From: a virus
Taxonomy: Duplodnaviria; Caudoviricetes
Virus record (IMG/VR): IMGVR_UViG_3300042558_004043
Reading direction: 5' to 3' (one strand)
DNA length: 64,000 nt
The stretch's first letter is position 1. Every line of letters starts with the position of its first letter. The notes under the pieces are model-generated. The model was not told the origin of the DNA. It did not search any database and worked only from the letters and a program-made list of their open reading frames with translations. Shown one piece after another: positions 22,871 through 60,890 of the stretch. The position numbers were made by a program, and so were the translations under genes.

Positions 22871-23932
22871 GTGAATGAAATATTAAACAAATATTACGAC
22901 GAGCATTTGATGTATAAACAAGTACATCCCACTCTTCCACTTACCATATGGAACTATTCTGAAAAGGTCCAGTATGATTCGCTATGGAATGATATAACCC
23001 TGCAAACTCGCGGACTTGTTACAGACAATAAAGGAAATATAGTCGCCAGACCATTCAAGAAGTTCTTTAACGATTCAGAAAAGAAACACACCCCAACTCC
23101 TGACTTTGATGTATACGATAAGTTAGATGGTAGTCTTGGAATTTTGTTCCACTATGAAGGTGAATGGGTTCTTGCGACTCGCGGGTCATTCACCTCTGAC
23201 CAAGCGGTAAAAGGATTTGAGATGTTACAAAAGTATGATTATCAAAAACTCCATAAAGATTATACTTATTTGTTTGAAATAATTTTCAAAGAAAACCGGA
23301 TAGTGGTTCAATACCCATACGAAGATTTGATACTACTTGGAATGATACATACCAAAACCGGTTATGAAGTTGATTTATATGGTGAAGGTAATGACGTTAG
23401 ATTGAAGAACTTAATCAATAACCTTAAATTCAAAGTTGTTAAGAAGTATGACGGTATAAATGATTATTCTATCTTAAAGGGAAAGATAAAGGATGATGAA
23501 GAAGGTTTTGTTGTTAAGTTCTCAAATGGGGATAGAATTAAAATTAAGGGTGAGGAGTATTTAAGATTACATAAGATAATGACAAACGTATCAACAACTG
23601 CGGTGTGGGAGATGTTAAGTGAGGGTAGGGATGTTTTGGAGATAATCAAAGATGTCCCTGATGAGTTCTACAACAAAGTTAAAAGTTATGTTAGAGATTT
23701 AAAATATACTTATTTCTCTTTGAGTGAATATGCTGGAAAAACTCACGATGGGTTCCGGTATGGAAAGTTTGGTGATAAAGACCCCGAGCCAACCAAAAAA
23801 GAATTTGCTGAGTTTTTATCAATGAATAACTATAATCCTGTTATAAAAGCATTATGCTTCGCAATGTGGGACAAGAAGGATTATGATAAAATAATATGGA
23901 AACATATAAAACCTGAATTTAGAAAATTATGA
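22871..23932 (+). CDS. T4 Rnl1-like RNA ligase
   Basis: motif I YDKLDGSLG, ARPFKKFFN, FEII, EGFVV, RIKIK; GTG start. Confidence 0.85.
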   Translation: MNEILNKYYDEHLMYKQVHPTLPLTIWNYSEKVQYDSLWNDITLQTRGLVTDNKGNIVARPFKKFFNDSEKKHTPTPDFDVYDKLDGSLGILFHYEGEWVLATRGSFTSDQAVKGFEMLQKYDYQKLHKDYTYLFEIIFKENRIVVQYPYEDLILLGMIHTKTGYEVDLYGEGNDVRLKNLINNLKFKVVKKYDGINDYSILKGKIKDDEEGFVVKFSNGDRIKIKGEEYLRLHKIMTNVSTTAVWEMLSEGRDVLEIIKDVPDEFYNKVKSYVRDLKYTYFSLSEYAGKTHDGFRYGKFGDKDPEPTKKEFAEFLSMNNYNPVIKALCFAMWDKKDYDKIIWKHIKPEFRKL

Positions 23933-29438: not shown

Positions 29439-29722
29439 ATAATACGGAAATAACGCCAGTACCCGAAATAGTTGCTGACACAAGACGAGTTTGTGAGATA
29501 CGATTTGATTGTATGGTGACAATGCATGATGTTGCATATAGAACATATAAGGGAATGTGGGGACAGGATGAACAATCAAAAACACCTCAATGGTTTAAAG
29601 CCAATCATGTTCTAACATTAGAAATGGTTAAACATGCTGACCCATATGAATTGGGAATGAGAATTAAAGAAATGTTTCATCAACTAGAAAAAACAATAGA
29701 ACAATATGAACAGCGTGGATAA
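29435..29722 (+). CDS. hypothetical protein
   Basis: GGAGGTGA upstream, ATGA overlap. Confidence 0.6.
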   Translation: MNNTEITPVPEIVADTRRVCEIRFDCMVTMHDVAYRTYKGMWGQDEQSKTPQWFKANHVLTLEMVKHADPYELGMRIKEMFHQLEKTIEQYEQRG

Positions 29723-30884
29723 ACAATACCAAACATTACTTCAAACCATTTTAGATTTTGGGGTGGAGAAGAAAGACCGGACTGGTACCGGGACTAAATC
29801 AATTTTTGGTTATACCATTCGTCATAAGATGTCAGAAGGGTTTCCACTTCTAACAACCAAAAAGATGCATTTCAAATCAGTCGTAACTGAATTGTTATGG
29901 TTTTTAAGAGGTGATACCAATATCAAATACCTTGTCGATAACAATTGTCATATTTGGGATGGTGATGCTTATAAGAACTACTTACACAAAGTTATTCGTG
30001 ACAAAGACATTGTAAGGTATTTGAAATCATATTCAGTAGATACAAATGGTGTTCCTACTATTGAACCATACTCAAAAGAAGAGTTTATTGAACGAATTAA
30101 AAACGATAATGAGTTTGCTAAGAAATATGGGGAATTGGGAAAAATTTATGGACATGGTTGGCGTAATTGGGGAAGTGAATTTTCATTACATATTGGATTA
30201 GAACGGGATGGAAGTCAAGATAAAATAAATTTTAAACAAGGTATAGACCAAATCGCAAACCTAATCTCTGAACTCAAAACAAATCCTGATTCTAGGAGAT
30301 TACTTGTTTCGGCTTGGAATGTGGCGGATGTTGAAAGTGGTAGTATGGTGCTCCCACCCTGTCATTATGGATTTCAAGTTTATACAAGAGAGTTGAGTTT
30401 GGAAGAAAGATTATGTATTGCGGATAAATTTAATCCATTAATCAGAGAGGATTGTTTGACTAAAGTTTCAAACCCTAATCAAACACCCGAATTAAAATTA
30501 ATAGAACAACACGAATGGTTAGATTCGTTAGGTCCTAATGTTGTCCCACAAAGAAGAGCAATCTCTCTAATGTATAATTGCAGAAGTCAAGATGTACCAC
30601 TCGGCACACCATTCAATATCAGCTCATATGCGTTGTTATTAGAAATAATTGCTAAACAAGTCAATATGGTTCCAGACCAATTAATCGGTAATTTGGGTGA
30701 TTGTCATATATACCTCAATCAAATTGATGGTGTTAAAGAACAATTAACAAGAGAACCATATCCACTACCAACAGTAAAAATATCTGACAGAGTTGTTAAT
30801 GATATTTCGGAATATACTTTGGATGATATTATTTTGGAGAATTACCAAAGCCACCCAACAATTAAAATGCCGTTATCCAATTAA
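29706..30884 (+). CDS. thyA: thymidylate synthase with insertions
   Basis: DRTGTGT, FPLLTTKK, ELLWFLRG, LPPCH, RSQDVPLGTPFN, HIYLNQ. Confidence 0.95.
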   Translation: MNSVDKQYQTLLQTILDFGVEKKDRTGTGTKSIFGYTIRHKMSEGFPLLTTKKMHFKSVVTELLWFLRGDTNIKYLVDNNCHIWDGDAYKNYLHKVIRDKDIVRYLKSYSVDTNGVPTIEPYSKEEFIERIKNDNEFAKKYGELGKIYGHGWRNWGSEFSLHIGLERDGSQDKINFKQGIDQIANLISELKTNPDSRRLLVSAWNVADVESGSMVLPPCHYGFQVYTRELSLEERLCIADKFNPLIREDCLTKVSNPNQTPELKLIEQHEWLDSLGPNVVPQRRAISLMYNCRSQDVPLGTPFNISSYALLLEIIAKQVNMVPDQLIGNLGDCHIYLNQIDGVKEQLTREPYPLPTVKISDRVVNDISEYTLDDIILENYQSHPTIKMPLSN

Positions 30885-38757: not shown

Positions 38758-40011
38758 ATGTCGTTAAAATTAAAATTAAACTTAATTTCATTAATAGTAG
38801 TTGTTTTCTTAATCCTGAAAACTACAGTATTACTTGATATCACTCCTTCATCACCAGTTACGAGGGGGTCGGAATATATTCTATTTTTGACAATAACATA
38901 TTTTTTATATTCCTTTATCAGACAATATATTAAGAATGAAAGGGAAAATAAAAAACTTACTGAAAAAATCACACAAAAAGAAAGAGCGTTAGCAAATAGA
39001 ATGGATGCGATTAATCGTTCAAGTCCTGTGATTGAATTTGATACTAATGGTATAGTTTGTTTTGCCAATGATTCATTTTTGGATGCAATGGGGTATAAAT
39101 CAGAAGAGGTTATAGGAAAACATCATAGTATTTTTGTTTTTGATGATGAAAAAAATTCAAATGGGTATATTAATTTTTGGAACAAACTTAAATCAGGTGT
39201 TTATTTTAGTGGGGACATTATCAGAAAGAAAAAGGACGGTAACAAGATTTATTTAAGTGCCACCTACAATCCAATTATAAATGAAACAGGAGAAACCTAT
39301 CGAGTATTAAAAATTGCAAGAGACATATCTGAAATTGTTGAAAAGTCAAAAGAAATTGAAAAACAAAACACTTATCTCGAGCACGCGGCTAAAATATTGA
39401 GACACGACATGCACTCTGGAATTAATACTTATATCCCGAGAGGTATAAGTTCTTTGGAAAGAAGATTAAAACCTGAGGACATAGAAACTTTAAAGATTGA
39501 GGCTCCCCTTAAAATGATTAAGGAGGGATTAAGACACTCACAAAAAGTTTATAAAGGTGTTTATGAATTTACCAATTTGGTTAAAAAAGATGTGGTATTA
39601 AATAAAGCTGAATGTGATTTAAGAGCGATACTAAATGATTATTTATCATCAACTGCTTATCATAGTCAGGTAATTATTGAGGAACTACCAACCATAGAAG
39701 TTAATGAAGCTCTATTCTGTACGGCAATAGACAACTTAATTAGGAATGGATTGAAGTATAATGATTCTGAAACAAAATTTGTAAAAATATATATGGAAGG
39801 TGATGAGTTAATGGTTCAGGATAATGGACGAGGTATTGACCAAAAAGATTTTGACCATTTATCAAAACCATACACAAGAAAAGAAGGGCAAAAAGAGTCA
39901 GGAACTGGACTCGGATTAAACATATGTGTTGCGATATTACAAGAACACAAGTTTTTGGTAAGATGTGAGAAAAATGAGATAGGAACTAAACTGAAAATAA
40001 AAATAAAATAA
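38758..40011 (+). CDS. membrane PAS-domain sensor histidine kinase
   Basis: 2 TM; PAS (IEFDTNG...KHHSIF...YNPI); H-box LRHDM; N-box DNLIRNGLKYN; DNGRGI; GTGLGL. Confidence 0.92.
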   Translation: MSLKLKLNLISLIVVVFLILKTTVLLDITPSSPVTRGSEYILFLTITYFLYSFIRQYIKNERENKKLTEKITQKERALANRMDAINRSSPVIEFDTNGIVCFANDSFLDAMGYKSEEVIGKHHSIFVFDDEKNSNGYINFWNKLKSGVYFSGDIIRKKKDGNKIYLSATYNPIINETGETYRVLKIARDISEIVEKSKEIEKQNTYLEHAAKILRHDMHSGINTYIPRGISSLERRLKPEDIETLKIEAPLKMIKEGLRHSQKVYKGVYEFTNLVKKDVVLNKAECDLRAILNDYLSSTAYHSQVIIEELPTIEVNEALFCTAIDNLIRNGLKYNDSETKFVKIYMEGDELMVQDNGRGIDQKDFDHLSKPYTRKEGQKESGTGLGLNICVAILQEHKFLVRCEKNEIGTKLKIKIK

Positions 40012-44166: not shown

Positions 44167-46044
44167 ATGGGTAAAATTATAGGTATTGATTTAGGAACAA
44201 CAAATTCATGTGTTGCCGTTATGGAAAATGGCGAACCTGTTGTGATTACAAACAGTGAAGGAAAAAGAACCACCCCTTCGATTGTTGGTTTTGCAAATGG
44301 TGGTGATAGAAAGATTGGTGACCCGGCAAAACGTCAAGCGGTTACAAATCCTGATAAAACAGTTTACTCCATTAAGCGTTTTATGGGAGCAAGTTTCGAT
44401 GAAAGTAAAAAAGAAATCAAGCGTGTTCCTTATAAAGTGGTTAAAGGTGAGGGTAACACTCCTCGTGTTCAAATTGAGGACAAGAAGTTTTCAGCTCAGG
44501 AAATTTCGGCGATGGTTCTTCAGAAAATGAAGCAAACTGCCGAAGACTATTTGGGTGAAACAGTAACTGATGCGGTTATTACAGTACCAGCATATTTCAA
44601 TGATGCTCAACGTCAGGCAACAAAAGAAGCCGGTGAAATTGCAGGTCTAACTGTTAAACGTATTATTAACGAACCAACCGCGGCGGCACTTGCCTATGGT
44701 CTTGACAAAAAAGGTCAGGATATGAAAGTTGTTGTGTTTGACTGTGGTGGTGGTACTCACGACGTATCGGTTCTTGAACTTGGTGATGGGGTATTTGAAG
44801 TTTTGTCAACTGACGGTGATACACACCTAGGTGGTGATGACTTTGACCAAGCAATTATCGACTGGCTCGTTCAAGAGTTCAAAGATGAAAATGGTTTGGA
44901 TTTGAATCAAGACCCAATGGCACTTCAGCGTCTTCGTGAAGGAGCTGAAAAAGCAAAGATTGAACTTTCATCTTCACCATCAACGGAAATCAATCTTCCT
45001 TACATTATGCCGGTAGATGGTATGCCAAAACACTTGGTTCGTACAATGACAAAGGCAAAGTTCGAGCAGTTGGTTGACAGTTTGGTACAACGTACAATTG
45101 CACCATGTAAATCGGCCTTGAAAAACGCAGGTTTGAAACCAAAAGACATCGATGAAGTTATCTTGGTTGGAGGTTCAACTAGAATTCCTGCAATCCAAGA
45201 GGCAGTTAAAAAGTTCTTCGGTAAAGAACCATCAAAAGGAGTTAACCCTGATGAAGTTGTAGCACTTGGTGCTGCAATTCAAGGAGGAGTACTCGCAGGT
45301 GACGTTAAAGACGTATTGTTGTTGGATGTAACACCACTTTCACTCGGTATTGAAACGATGGGTGGAGTATTCACAAAACTTATTGAGTCAAACACAACAA
45401 TTCCGACAAAAAAGTCACAAGTTTTCTCAACCGCAGTTGACAATCAACCATCAGTAGAAATTCACGTTCTACAGGGAGAAAGAGCAATGGCTCAAGACAA
45501 TAGAACAATTGGTCGTTTCTTCCTTGATGGTCTTCCAACGGCAATGAGAGGAGTTCCACAAATCGAAGTAACTTTTGACATCGATGCTAACGGTATTATC
45601 AATGTTTCAGCAAAAGACAAAGCCACTGACAAAGAGCAATCAATCCGTATTGAAAGTTCGACAGGACTTTCTAAAGAGGAAATTGAACAAATGAAACGTG
45701 ATGCTGAGTTAAATGCCGAAGCGGACGCTAAAGCTCGTGAAAATGCTGACATAATAAATCAAGGAGATTCTATGGCGTTCCAAGCTGAAAAAACTCTAAA
45801 GGATTTAGAAGAAAAAATGACCGATGAACAAAAAACTCAATTAACCGATGCTTTGGCTGAATTAAAAACAGCCCTACAAGAGAAGGAAGTTGAAAAGGTT
45901 AGAGACGCAACTGCAAAAGTTGCAATCACATCTCAAACAATTACCCAAGGAATTTATAGTCAGTCTGGTTCTGAAGGTGAAGGCGGTCAAACTATGGATG
46001 AAGAAGTTTCAGACGTAGATTTTGAAGAAGTACAACCTAAGTAA
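44167..46044 (+). CDS. dnaK: molecular chaperone DnaK (Hsp70)
   Basis: [47 protein letters not shown]. Confidence 0.98.
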
Positions 46045-57809: not shown

Positions 57810-57883
57810 GCTCCCGTAGCTCAGTTGGATAGAGCAACAGATTTCTAATCTGTGGGCCAGGGGTTCGAATCCCTTCGGGAGTA
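57810..57883 (+). tRNA. tRNA-Arg(UCU)
   Basis: GCTCCCG/CGGGAGT acceptor, ACAGA-TTTCTAA-TCTGT anticodon arm, GGTTCGAATCC T-arm; CCA not encoded. Confidence 0.93.
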
Positions 57884-57893
57884 CTAATTTTTT

Positions 57894-60095: not shown

Positions 60096-60313
60096 AAAAA
60101 ATCAAATTAAAAAAACCTTATATCGATAAAACTGATGAGACAAGAAATCAGGTAATTAGAGATATGTTTAACACCAATAAAAAACCAATTACAAAAATGA
60201 GATACAATAACAATACACCTTTTGAAGAATTTATGTACCGTTTTGCGGTTGTCTTTGGAATCACTGTGATTACTTTAAATCTAATTATTTTGGTTTTAAA
60301 GTTGATTGGTTAA
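60092..60313 (+). CDS. small C-terminally anchored membrane protein
   Basis: ATGA overlap; hydrophobic tail. Confidence 0.55.
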   Translation: MKKIKLKKPYIDKTDETRNQVIRDMFNTNKKPITKMRYNNNTPFEEFMYRFAVVFGITVITLNLIILVLKLIG

Positions 60314-60349
60314 GGTTTTACCTGTATATTTGTAAAAGTTATTTGAAAT

Positions 60350-60639
60350 GCTGGGTTGATGGAATAGGTAGACATTCAGGACTTTAACTATTTGAGTGCG
60401 TCTTGAGAAATCAAGAATGTAGAACTCCGTAAATTCGGTGAACCCTCCGAAAGTGGGAACCCCGAGCCAAGCCTGAAAAGGAAGGTGTAGAGACTAGACA
60501 CGGAGCACCTAAATCGTAAGATATGGTGAAGGTATAGTCCAGACCACAAACAACTTTTAGTTGGTAGTGAAAACTATAGTGGTAAGAAAATCCTGTGGAC
60601 ATTGCGTCCGTGTGGGTTCGAGTCCCACACCCAGTACCA
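60350..60639 (+). tRNA. tRNA-Leu(UAA) interrupted by a group I intron (exons 60350-60384 and 60587-60639)
   Basis: spliced anticodon arm CAGGA-CTT^AAAA-TCCTG; acceptor GCTGGGT/ACCCAGT; long variable arm; encoded CCA. Confidence 0.92.
60385..60586 (+). ncRNA. self-splicing group I intron (IC3, Azoarcus-like), 202 nt, no ORF
   Basis: P1 ACUU/GAGU with U.G; P3 CTCCGT/ACGGAG; P7 GACTA/TAGTC; GAAA-capped P2 and P9; terminal G. Confidence 0.92.
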
Positions 60640-60641
60640 AA

Positions 60642-60715
60642 GCACCCTTAGCTCATTAGGTTAGAGCAAGTGACTCATAATCACTGGGTGGCAGGTTCGA
60701 ATCCTGCAGGGTGCA
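60642..60715 (+). tRNA. tRNA with CAU anticodon, probably Ile2 (lysidine type)
   Basis: GCACCCT/AGGGTGC acceptor; AGTGA-CTCATAA-TCACT; resembles enterobacterial tRNA-Ile2 including C4 and C5. Confidence 0.85.
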
Positions 60716-60727
60716 CTAGTTAAACAT

Positions 60728-60872
60728 AGTCAAGTGGCGGAATATTGAGAGTCTCCGGAAACATACTCTCAAGGTAGACGTACTAGATGGTTATAGCACT
60801 AGGGGTAAAAAAGCACAATGCGTGTGGTCACTATAATGGCAGCCCGTGGAGGTTCGAATCCTTCCTTGACTA
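60728..60872 (+). ncRNA. 145-nt tRNA-like RNA with D-loop hairpin insertion and expanded anticodon/variable region
   Basis: AGTCAAG/CTTGACT acceptor, TGGCGGAAT...GGTAGACGT D-arm, GGAGG-TTCGAAT-CCTTC T-arm; no canonical anticodon arm. Confidence 0.7.
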
Positions 60873-60890
60873 CAATTTTTTTAATTTACT

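Follow-up and report, generated by a model that had tools for sequence, protein, structure and literature searches.

The window analysed here, a 64,000-nucleotide stretch of viral DNA, carries a tRNA-Leu(UAA) gene that is split in its anticodon loop by a short group I intron. When introns were allowed, ARAGORN called tRNA-Leu(taa) at 60350-60639 with a 202-nt intron from gene position 36, that is, after U34 (i(36,202)). Run with its default settings, which disallow introns, the same program missed the gene at 60350-60639 and reported only tRNA-Arg(UCU) at 57810-57884 and tRNA-Met(CAU) at 60642-60716. The features of the locus are as follows, each with the evidence for its placement.

60350-60384 (+): 5′ exon of tRNA-Leu(UAA), with the acceptor 5′ strand, D arm, anticodon stem 5′ strand and C32-U33-U34; ARAGORN -i, stems covary
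60385-60586 (+): ORF-less 202-nt group I intron, IC3 type, at CUU^AAAA; RF00028, covariation, gap in the relative L270
60382-60396 (+): P1, exon C-U-U (60382-84) with guide G-A-G (60394-96); covariation
60397-60421 (+): P2, lower stem UGC/GUA and 6-bp upper stem, GAAA tetraloop at 60407-10; 9 of 9 pairs changed on both sides
60425-60429 (+): P3 5′ strand, partner 60501-60505; 100% of cells paired, 5 of 5 pairs compensatory
60434-60466 (+): P4 (60434-40/60460-66) around P5 (60443-57); P4 core invariant, outer pairs covary
60467-60485 (+): P6 (CC/GG) and P6a hairpin with GAAA loop; P6a covaries
60490-60495 (+): P7 5′ strand with bulged A, partner 60536-60540; guanosine-binding helix, pseudoknotted with P3; 5 of 5 pairs invariant in 60/60 sequences
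60501-60505 (+): P3 3′ strand; covariation
60506-60528 (+): P8 with GUAA loop and 11-nt-receptor-like motif CCUAAA...UAUGG; helix covaries, motif read from sequence
60529-60540 (+): J8/7 (AAGGUAU) and P7 3′ strand (AGUCC); block invariant in 60 sequences
60543-60583 (+): P9 three-way junction, with P9 (60543-47/60579-83), P9a (60551-63) and P9b (60564-77, GAAA loop); covariation
60586 (+): terminal (omega) G, last base of the intron; invariant in 60/60, position fixed by the intron-less allele
60587-60639 (+): 3′ exon of tRNA-Leu(UAA), with A35-A38, anticodon stem 3′ strand, long variable arm, T arm, acceptor 3′ strand, A73 and CCA; ARAGORN, covariation
60642-60716 (+): tRNA-Met(CAU), 2 nt downstream of tRNA-Leu; ARAGORN, Leu-Met order also in the intron-less relative

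Structure and conservation of the split gene

Deletion of 60385-60586 left an 88-nt class II tRNA-Leu(taa) and restored the anticodon arm CAGGA-CUUAAAA-UCCUG, as the first-pass annotation of this DNA had predicted. The spliced tRNA shows the complete class II cloverleaf, with a 7-bp acceptor stem, a canonical T arm, a long variable arm (4-bp), discriminator A73 and an encoded CCA. The same annotation had taken the insert for a group I intron splitting a phage tRNA-Leu(UAA), and intron-aware ARAGORN, a local match to the Rfam group I model and covariation all bear this out.

The local scan of 501 nt with Intron_gpI (RF00028) gave 49.5 bits (E 1e-11). Since this lies 0.5 bit under the gathering score of 50, whole-window Rfam scans at either the gathering threshold or a permissive E-value did not report the tRNA-Leu intron. 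Two homologues scored 56.6 bits (L282) and 54.1 bits (L284) with the same model, whose original 12 seed sequences were all non-bacterial (Williams 2020). The match supports the group I class and not the intron boundaries. Rfam's own alignment, which places P1 at 60373-78/60393-98 and ends at 60560, 26 nt early, was rejected because it restores no tRNA, and its P1 is contradicted by the family alignment, which keeps CUU/GAG and G60586.

We aligned the window gene with 59 distinct intron-bearing tRNA-Leu(UAA) genes from viral and bacterial contigs (n = 60) and scored a structure of 85 pairs comprising the tRNA arms and P1-P10. Standard pairs filled 96.1% of the pair cells, in comparison with 35-41% when the partners were slid by 1-3 columns; compensatory changes on both sides occurred at 58 of the 85 pairs, and none of 500 shuffles reached the observed values. 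All tRNA arms covary. At the splice site, the wobble expected of a group I P1, U60384.G60394, is U.G in 60/60 sequences, and the other P1 pairs are U-A and C-G in 59/60 each. For P10, the possible partners of the guide U60391-93 are the three A at the start of the 3′ exon, these positions being U-A in 43/60, 59/60 and 58/60 sequences.

The elements of a group I core are all found, namely the P3-P7 pseudoknot, P4-P6, P8-P9 and a P7 with a bulged base. J3/4 (AAA, 60431-33) is invariant across the 60 sequences, the P6 pair 60468/60484 changes from C-G to G-C or U-A in 13 of them, a P9 pair changes from C-G to U-A in 5, and every P9a and P9b pair covaries. P2 (TCTTGA-GAAA-TCAAGA), P8, a GAAA-capped P9 and the terminal G60586, each predicted beforehand, are present and backed by covariation, while P3 (60425-29/60501-05) and P7 (60490,60492-95/60536-40) were found within 1 nt of their predicted positions. 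The architecture is compact, with 202 nt, helices P1-P9 only, neither P5abc nor P2.1, and GNRA loops on P2 and P9 (the latter being the L9b GAAA at 60569-72), which is that of subgroup IC3, an assignment that follows the databases cited by Williams 2020. By analogy with the Azoarcus architecture, the receptor-like motif in P8 would be the docking site of the L2 GAAA loop.

Of the 120 columns conserved to at least 90% among the other 59 sequences, the window copy agrees with its family at 117. The three deviating columns comprise a D-stem pair with compensation and, in P4, the replacement of G.U by G-C, so that pairing is kept or improved. In addition, a minimum-energy fold of the intron alone recovered P2, P3, P6a, P8 and the P9 junction (z = -2.4). 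The weak points for a reading in which the intron splices are an exon part of P1 of only 3 bp, the mispaired P4 position U60439/C60461 and the RF00028 score of 49.5 bits against 50. The short P1 is common to the whole family, with C-U-U/G-A-G near-invariant. Judged by conservation and pairing, the window intron is to be read as an intact ribozyme and not as a remnant.

The phage genome and its intron-less relatives

The window has a GC content of 31-35%, and its ORFs match phage PHROG families, a thymidylate synthase and a T4 Rnl1-type RNA ligase. It encodes a full-length DnaK/Hsp70 at 44167-46044 (+) that is 63-69% identical to the DnaK of huge phages of 630-735 kb. Related IMG/VR contigs measure 165-322 kb, and DNA of the window occurs in at least 14 lake-water metagenome runs. 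On these comparisons the window is best described as a fragment of a huge freshwater phage. Among 48 window ORFs, TTA accounts for 46% of the Leu codons and AGA for 59% of the Arg codons, a preference matching the phage's own tRNA-Leu(UAA) and tRNA-Arg(UCU). Because TTA is the commonest Leu codon, the spliced tRNA-Leu is probably needed, which would explain why the ribozyme has been kept intact.

The RNA ligase lies at 22871-23932 (+) and was identified by Pfam RNA_lig_T4_1 (60.6 bits) and PHROG 562 (E 9e-67). In T4, such an enzyme repairs tRNA that a host anticodon nuclease has cut, and by analogy the phage of the window may face a tRNA-targeting defence. Two further genes deserve mention. 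The thymidylate synthase (29706-30884 (+), 392 aa) matches its Pfam model in two stretches, giving an apparent internal insertion; no intron signal was found at 29706-30884, and the frame is open throughout. A PAS-domain histidine kinase is encoded at 38758-40011 (+).

Thirty-nine viral contigs carry the exon-1 variant string GGTAGCCACGAGGGACTT, a variant first seen in RNA contigs, and in 38 of them this related exon 1 is joined directly to AAAATCC with no intron. Synteny with the window is seen in two of the 39 contigs, L270 (322 kb, with a completeness rating of 100%) and L259 (166 kb). They align to window positions 60194-60387 and 60587-60716 at 81-82% identity on both sides of a gap, and ARAGORN calls in them an uninterrupted tRNA-Leu(taa) followed by tRNA-Met, which is the gene order of the window. 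The gap against these intron-less alleles is exactly 60385-60586, so the junction CUU^AAAA is fixed at the DNA level. Moving the boundary by one base either way does not reproduce CUUAAAA, and in the intron-less L270 GGGACTT stands directly before AAAATCC, which places the insertion between U34 and A35 as in the Leu.3Ug class. Both the junction and its identity with the insertion site of the cyanobacterial and plastid tRNA-Leu(UAA) intron, proposed in the first-pass annotation, are thereby upheld, the latter by ARAGORN and L270 together. RF00028 has no match anywhere in the complete 322-kb L270. A complete related phage thus has the same tRNA-Leu without the intron, which means that the intron is dispensable.

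Two observations were made beside these alleles. The thirty-ninth contig with GGTAGCCACGAGGGACTT, the 72.9-kb viral contig L252, holds a different anticodon-loop insertion of ~666 nt at 645-1398, which ARAGORN calls as tRNA-Ser(tga) i(37,666) and which is without the J8/7-P7 motif used for the scans described below; this may represent a different type of intron in or close to the same position. Directly after tRNA-Met, the window has a conserved stretch at 60717-60885. Positions 18-118 of L270 match window 60787-60885 at 83%, and in the intron-less relatives this sequence lies on the opposite side of the tRNA-Leu locus. Neither ARAGORN, also with introns allowed, nor Rfam made a call within 60717-60885.

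Four riverine metatranscriptome runs contain parts of the region, in the form of contigs. No contig in these four runs joins 60384 to 60587 for the exact window sequence. A 180-nt RNA-library contig running from exon 1 through exon 2 to tRNA-Met was considered as spliced RNA and rejected, since it matches the intron-less allele of related phages. Higher contig depth over the intron core was likewise rejected as a sign of expression, since it comes partly from related introns of other organisms. In run X18, a 161-nt contig on window 60487-60591 contains the 3′ end of the intron with G60586 and AAAAT, then the guide and P2 of a variant intron, and continues to 60419-60447, so that the junction is circularly permuted. 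Such a contig could come from a close relative's intron RNA after circularisation, or from another arrangement of the DNA; circularisation is a known fate of the Azoarcus intron (PMC13168695).

Endonuclease-bearing relatives and distribution

The closest whole-gene relative of the window locus lies on an 81-kb viral contig (L285/L286). It shares 31 of the 35 exon-1 bases with the window, shows no difference in the T arm or acceptor stem, and its intron occupies the same insertion site with a core that is 85% identical overall and identical from P7 to P9. This intron is 689 nt long and encodes in its P1 loop a 163-aa ORF with an HNH motif (Pfam HNH, 22.3 bits; cut-off 21.4). Further tRNA-Leu introns of ~700 nt, viral as well as bacterial, likewise contain genes for HNH proteins, and one tRNA-Met intron encodes a PD-(D/E)XK endonuclease. 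The 202-nt window intron contains no endonuclease ORF and hence does not carry the homing endonuclease of its own that marks a mobile intron; its opposite strand offers nothing beyond mechanical ORFs (53 and 63 aa). Compared with these relatives, the window copy is most naturally classed as an ORF-less form of a mobile homing intron. Either the window copy lost the HNH ORF, or the L286-type relative gained it.

A similarity search of GenBank phages returned two intron-split tRNA genes. In the huge phage LR756501 (735 kb), a tRNA-Leu(taa) is interrupted by an intron of 205 nt exactly where the window gene is split. In Microcoleus phage My-WqHQDG the split gene is a tRNA-Arg(CCU), which contains a 213-nt intron and is annotated there as a 286-nt tRNA. 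The search also returned related intron cores from other GenBank phages, and one of these cores lies under the capsid gene of a Pelagibacter phage. Separately, second and stronger group I matches were seen outside tRNA calls, with 96 bits in LR756501 (718159-718390; L281 1501-1732) and 71 bits in a 209-kb relative (G002 69293-69523; L283 1501-1731).

Scanning IMG/VR with the J8/7-P7 motif AAGGTANAGTCCAGAC gave at least 119 contigs. Among the 119 listed, the motif lies inside an intron-split tRNA in 95, of which 66 were called Leu(taa) and 15 'Tyr(ata)'. We rejected the latter identity: these ARAGORN calls in viral contigs are really tRNA-Leu(UAA) with the intron misplaced by one or two bases, which brings split tRNA-Leu(UAA) genes in viral contigs to at least 81. 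The same scan over one genome per prokaryote species gave at least 120 contigs, and among the 120 listed the motif falls in split tRNAs in 71 (33 Leu(taa), 20 Met/Ile(cat), the others Phe, Ser, Leu(caa), Arg and Val). The carriers among the matches listed span Acidobacteriota, Pseudomonadota, Bacteroidota, Patescibacteria, Omnitrophota and other phyla. The window intron is thus not unique, being one of many phage and bacterial copies. Four viral contigs (L097 2788-3060, L109 11077-11347, L110 1262-1533 and L073 1303-1577) have the same intron at the same CUU^AAAA site in short tRNAs with a UAA anticodon and no long variable arm, which sets them apart from the canonical tRNA-Leu body.

In a maximum-likelihood tree of 131 distinct introns, sampled with the one motif, the window intron belongs to a well-supported (99/96) clade whose eight members are all viral. 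Labels of viral and of bacterial origin on the tree are clustered but interleaved, with 11 changes against ~43 expected by chance, and at least 5-6 of the 11 are forced by well-supported branches. The same intron lineages occupy different tRNAs. The first-pass annotation had suggested that phages move these introns between phyla. The interleaving of labels agrees with that idea and makes such a role plausible, yet it is suggestive and does not amount to proof of phage transfer, because the sample was picked with one motif.

Interpretation of the locus

Several known systems resemble the window intron. With the cyanobacterial and plastid tRNA-Leu(UAA) intron it shares, as judged from descriptions of that intron, the host gene, the insertion point (CUU/intron...g/AAAA), the U-1.G wobble, the terminal G, the short P1 beside a retained anticodon stem and the IC3 core. 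Unlike that intron, the window copy sits in a huge phage, at the small end of the size range (202 nt) and in an all-viral clade. The Azoarcus sp. BH72 tRNA-Ile(CAU) intron (205 nt; PMC13168695) is similar in size, lies likewise in a tRNA anticodon loop and has no large peripheral domains; both introns have P2-P9, GAAA loops on P2 and P9, and an 11-nt-receptor-like motif in P8. They differ in tRNA and insertion point, the Azoarcus intron being of class Ile2.5Ug and that of the window Leu.3Ug, and the window P9 is a three-way junction. A putative match of the core strings to the Azoarcus intron was proposed in the first-pass annotation. The T4 td, nrdB and sunY, SPO1 and Twort introns are likewise group I ribozymes in lytic phage genomes, with relatives that carry homing endonucleases and with intron-plus and intron-minus alleles among related phages, as seen here. 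In contrast to the window intron, they interrupt genes for proteins and are of other subgroups.

The locus is very probably a working phage tRNA-Leu(UAA) gene with a selfish, ORF-less IC3 Leu.3Ug intron that is spliced out and has spread by homing. We infer splicing of the window intron from its sequence, and the course of events would be as follows. The anticodon stem of the tRNA would stay formed in the precursor, and exon C-U-U with guide G-A-G would make a short P1 whose U.G wobble marks the splice site. P7 would bind free guanosine, which would attack after U60384; the guide U-U-U would then form P10 with the three A that open the 3′ exon while G60586 takes the guanosine site, and ligation of the exons would yield the CUUAAAA anticodon loop. 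The GAAA loops of P2 and P9b probably dock on P8 and P5 and hold the compact fold, as in Azoarcus. The intron itself would be a selfish passenger homing among phage tRNA-Leu genes, and the window copy would represent the endonuclease-less form after loss of the endonuclease gene. In this account the succession of the splicing steps, the docking of the tetraloops and the endonuclease loss are what we infer, and a selfish but harmless intron is the most economical reading.

The best-surviving alternative holds that the intron is kept for a benefit, in that it splits a recognition site and so confers putative immunity to the HNH endonuclease of co-infecting relatives, a form of interference competition. 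The corresponding intron of a close relative, inserted at the identical position, does encode an HNH endonuclease; related huge phages include both carriers and non-carriers of the intron; and an intron endonuclease of phage PhiPA3 has been shown to mediate competition between co-infecting phages (PMC11620839). However, immunity would be an automatic by-product of any homed intron, for which selection is unnecessary. We therefore regard selection for immunity as rather unlikely, if still a serious contender; as a side benefit, immunity to the relative's endonuclease is plausible by analogy with PhiPA3.

The first-pass annotation had also raised the idea that the intron gates UUA decoding or shields the anticodon until it is spliced. 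In such a scheme the intron would delay the UUA-decoding tRNA and thereby time late genes, or would hide the anticodon loop from host anticodon nucleases. Two points speak for such a role: UUA is the main Leu codon, and the phage encodes a T4 Rnl1-type ligase, so that its tRNA may come under attack. Against it stand the complete 322-kb relative, which has the gene without intron and no RF00028 match, and the 38 of 39 viral contigs in which the related exon 1 is intron-less. Moreover, the mature tRNA is exposed with or without an intron in its gene, and the RNA is a bare minimal core with no riboswitch-like or protein-binding addition. Neither gating nor shielding thus found support, and we consider a regulatory or protective role improbable.

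A decayed, non-splicing remnant in a tRNA-Leu pseudogene could be read from the missing endonuclease ORF, the Rfam score just under threshold and the short P1, yet every invariant core position is intact with compensatory deviations, all helices can form, the short P1 is family-wide and the tRNA body is canonical with an encoded CCA, which leaves this reading very doubtful. Least credible of all is that the window is bacterial chromosome with an ordinary bacterial tRNA intron: the same intron class does occur in tRNA genes of many bacterial phyla, and no capsid or terminase gene was identified within the 64-kb window, but the best DnaK matches are huge-phage genomes, phage-only PHROG families match the window ORFs, the syntenic relatives are IMG/VR viral contigs, one of 322 kb rated complete, and the intron sits in an all-viral clade.

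Set against the literature, the window locus is a classical Leu.3Ug IC3 intron in a new host genome, of which public data already contain many phage copies, and it reveals no new mechanism. The novelty at first claimed for it was overstated, given the same class in at least 81 viral contigs, in LR756501 and in My-WqHQDG, and given the tRNA introns reported from megaphages in 2018. A 2014 review found all phage introns then known in protein genes despite the many tRNA genes of phages (PMC3984707), and the 2018 Lak megaphage preprint (Devoto et al., 10.1101/356790) presents its tRNA introns as the first in phages. These too lie in tRNA genes of very large phages; the accessible text calls them enigmatic and places them in tRNA Phe, Gly, Thr and Tyr with no class given, whereas that of the window is group I (10.1101/356790). 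Beyond this preprint, our literature search found no description of group I introns in phage tRNA genes, and a survey of huge phages does not mention introns.

A textbook ribozyme is thus found in phage tRNA genes, where the 2014 review knew of none (PMC3984707), and the window locus and its relatives show the classical tRNA-Leu intron to be common there. Because standard tRNA and Rfam scans miss split genes, counts of tRNA-Leu in phages are underestimated. As a tentative proposal, possible but short of probable, phages, and large freshwater ones especially, may be a major and hitherto undescribed reservoir and vehicle of IC3 tRNA introns, in which phage-specific clades home by HNH endonucleases and jump occasionally to other tRNAs and to bacteria of many phyla, and the intron may decide the outcome of co-infection. 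The intron-plus, intron-minus and endonuclease-plus alleles in related huge phages offer material for the study of homing, phage-phage competition and horizontal spread. The literature has so far given phage tRNA genes split by introns very little description, and the wider pattern merits a systematic survey.
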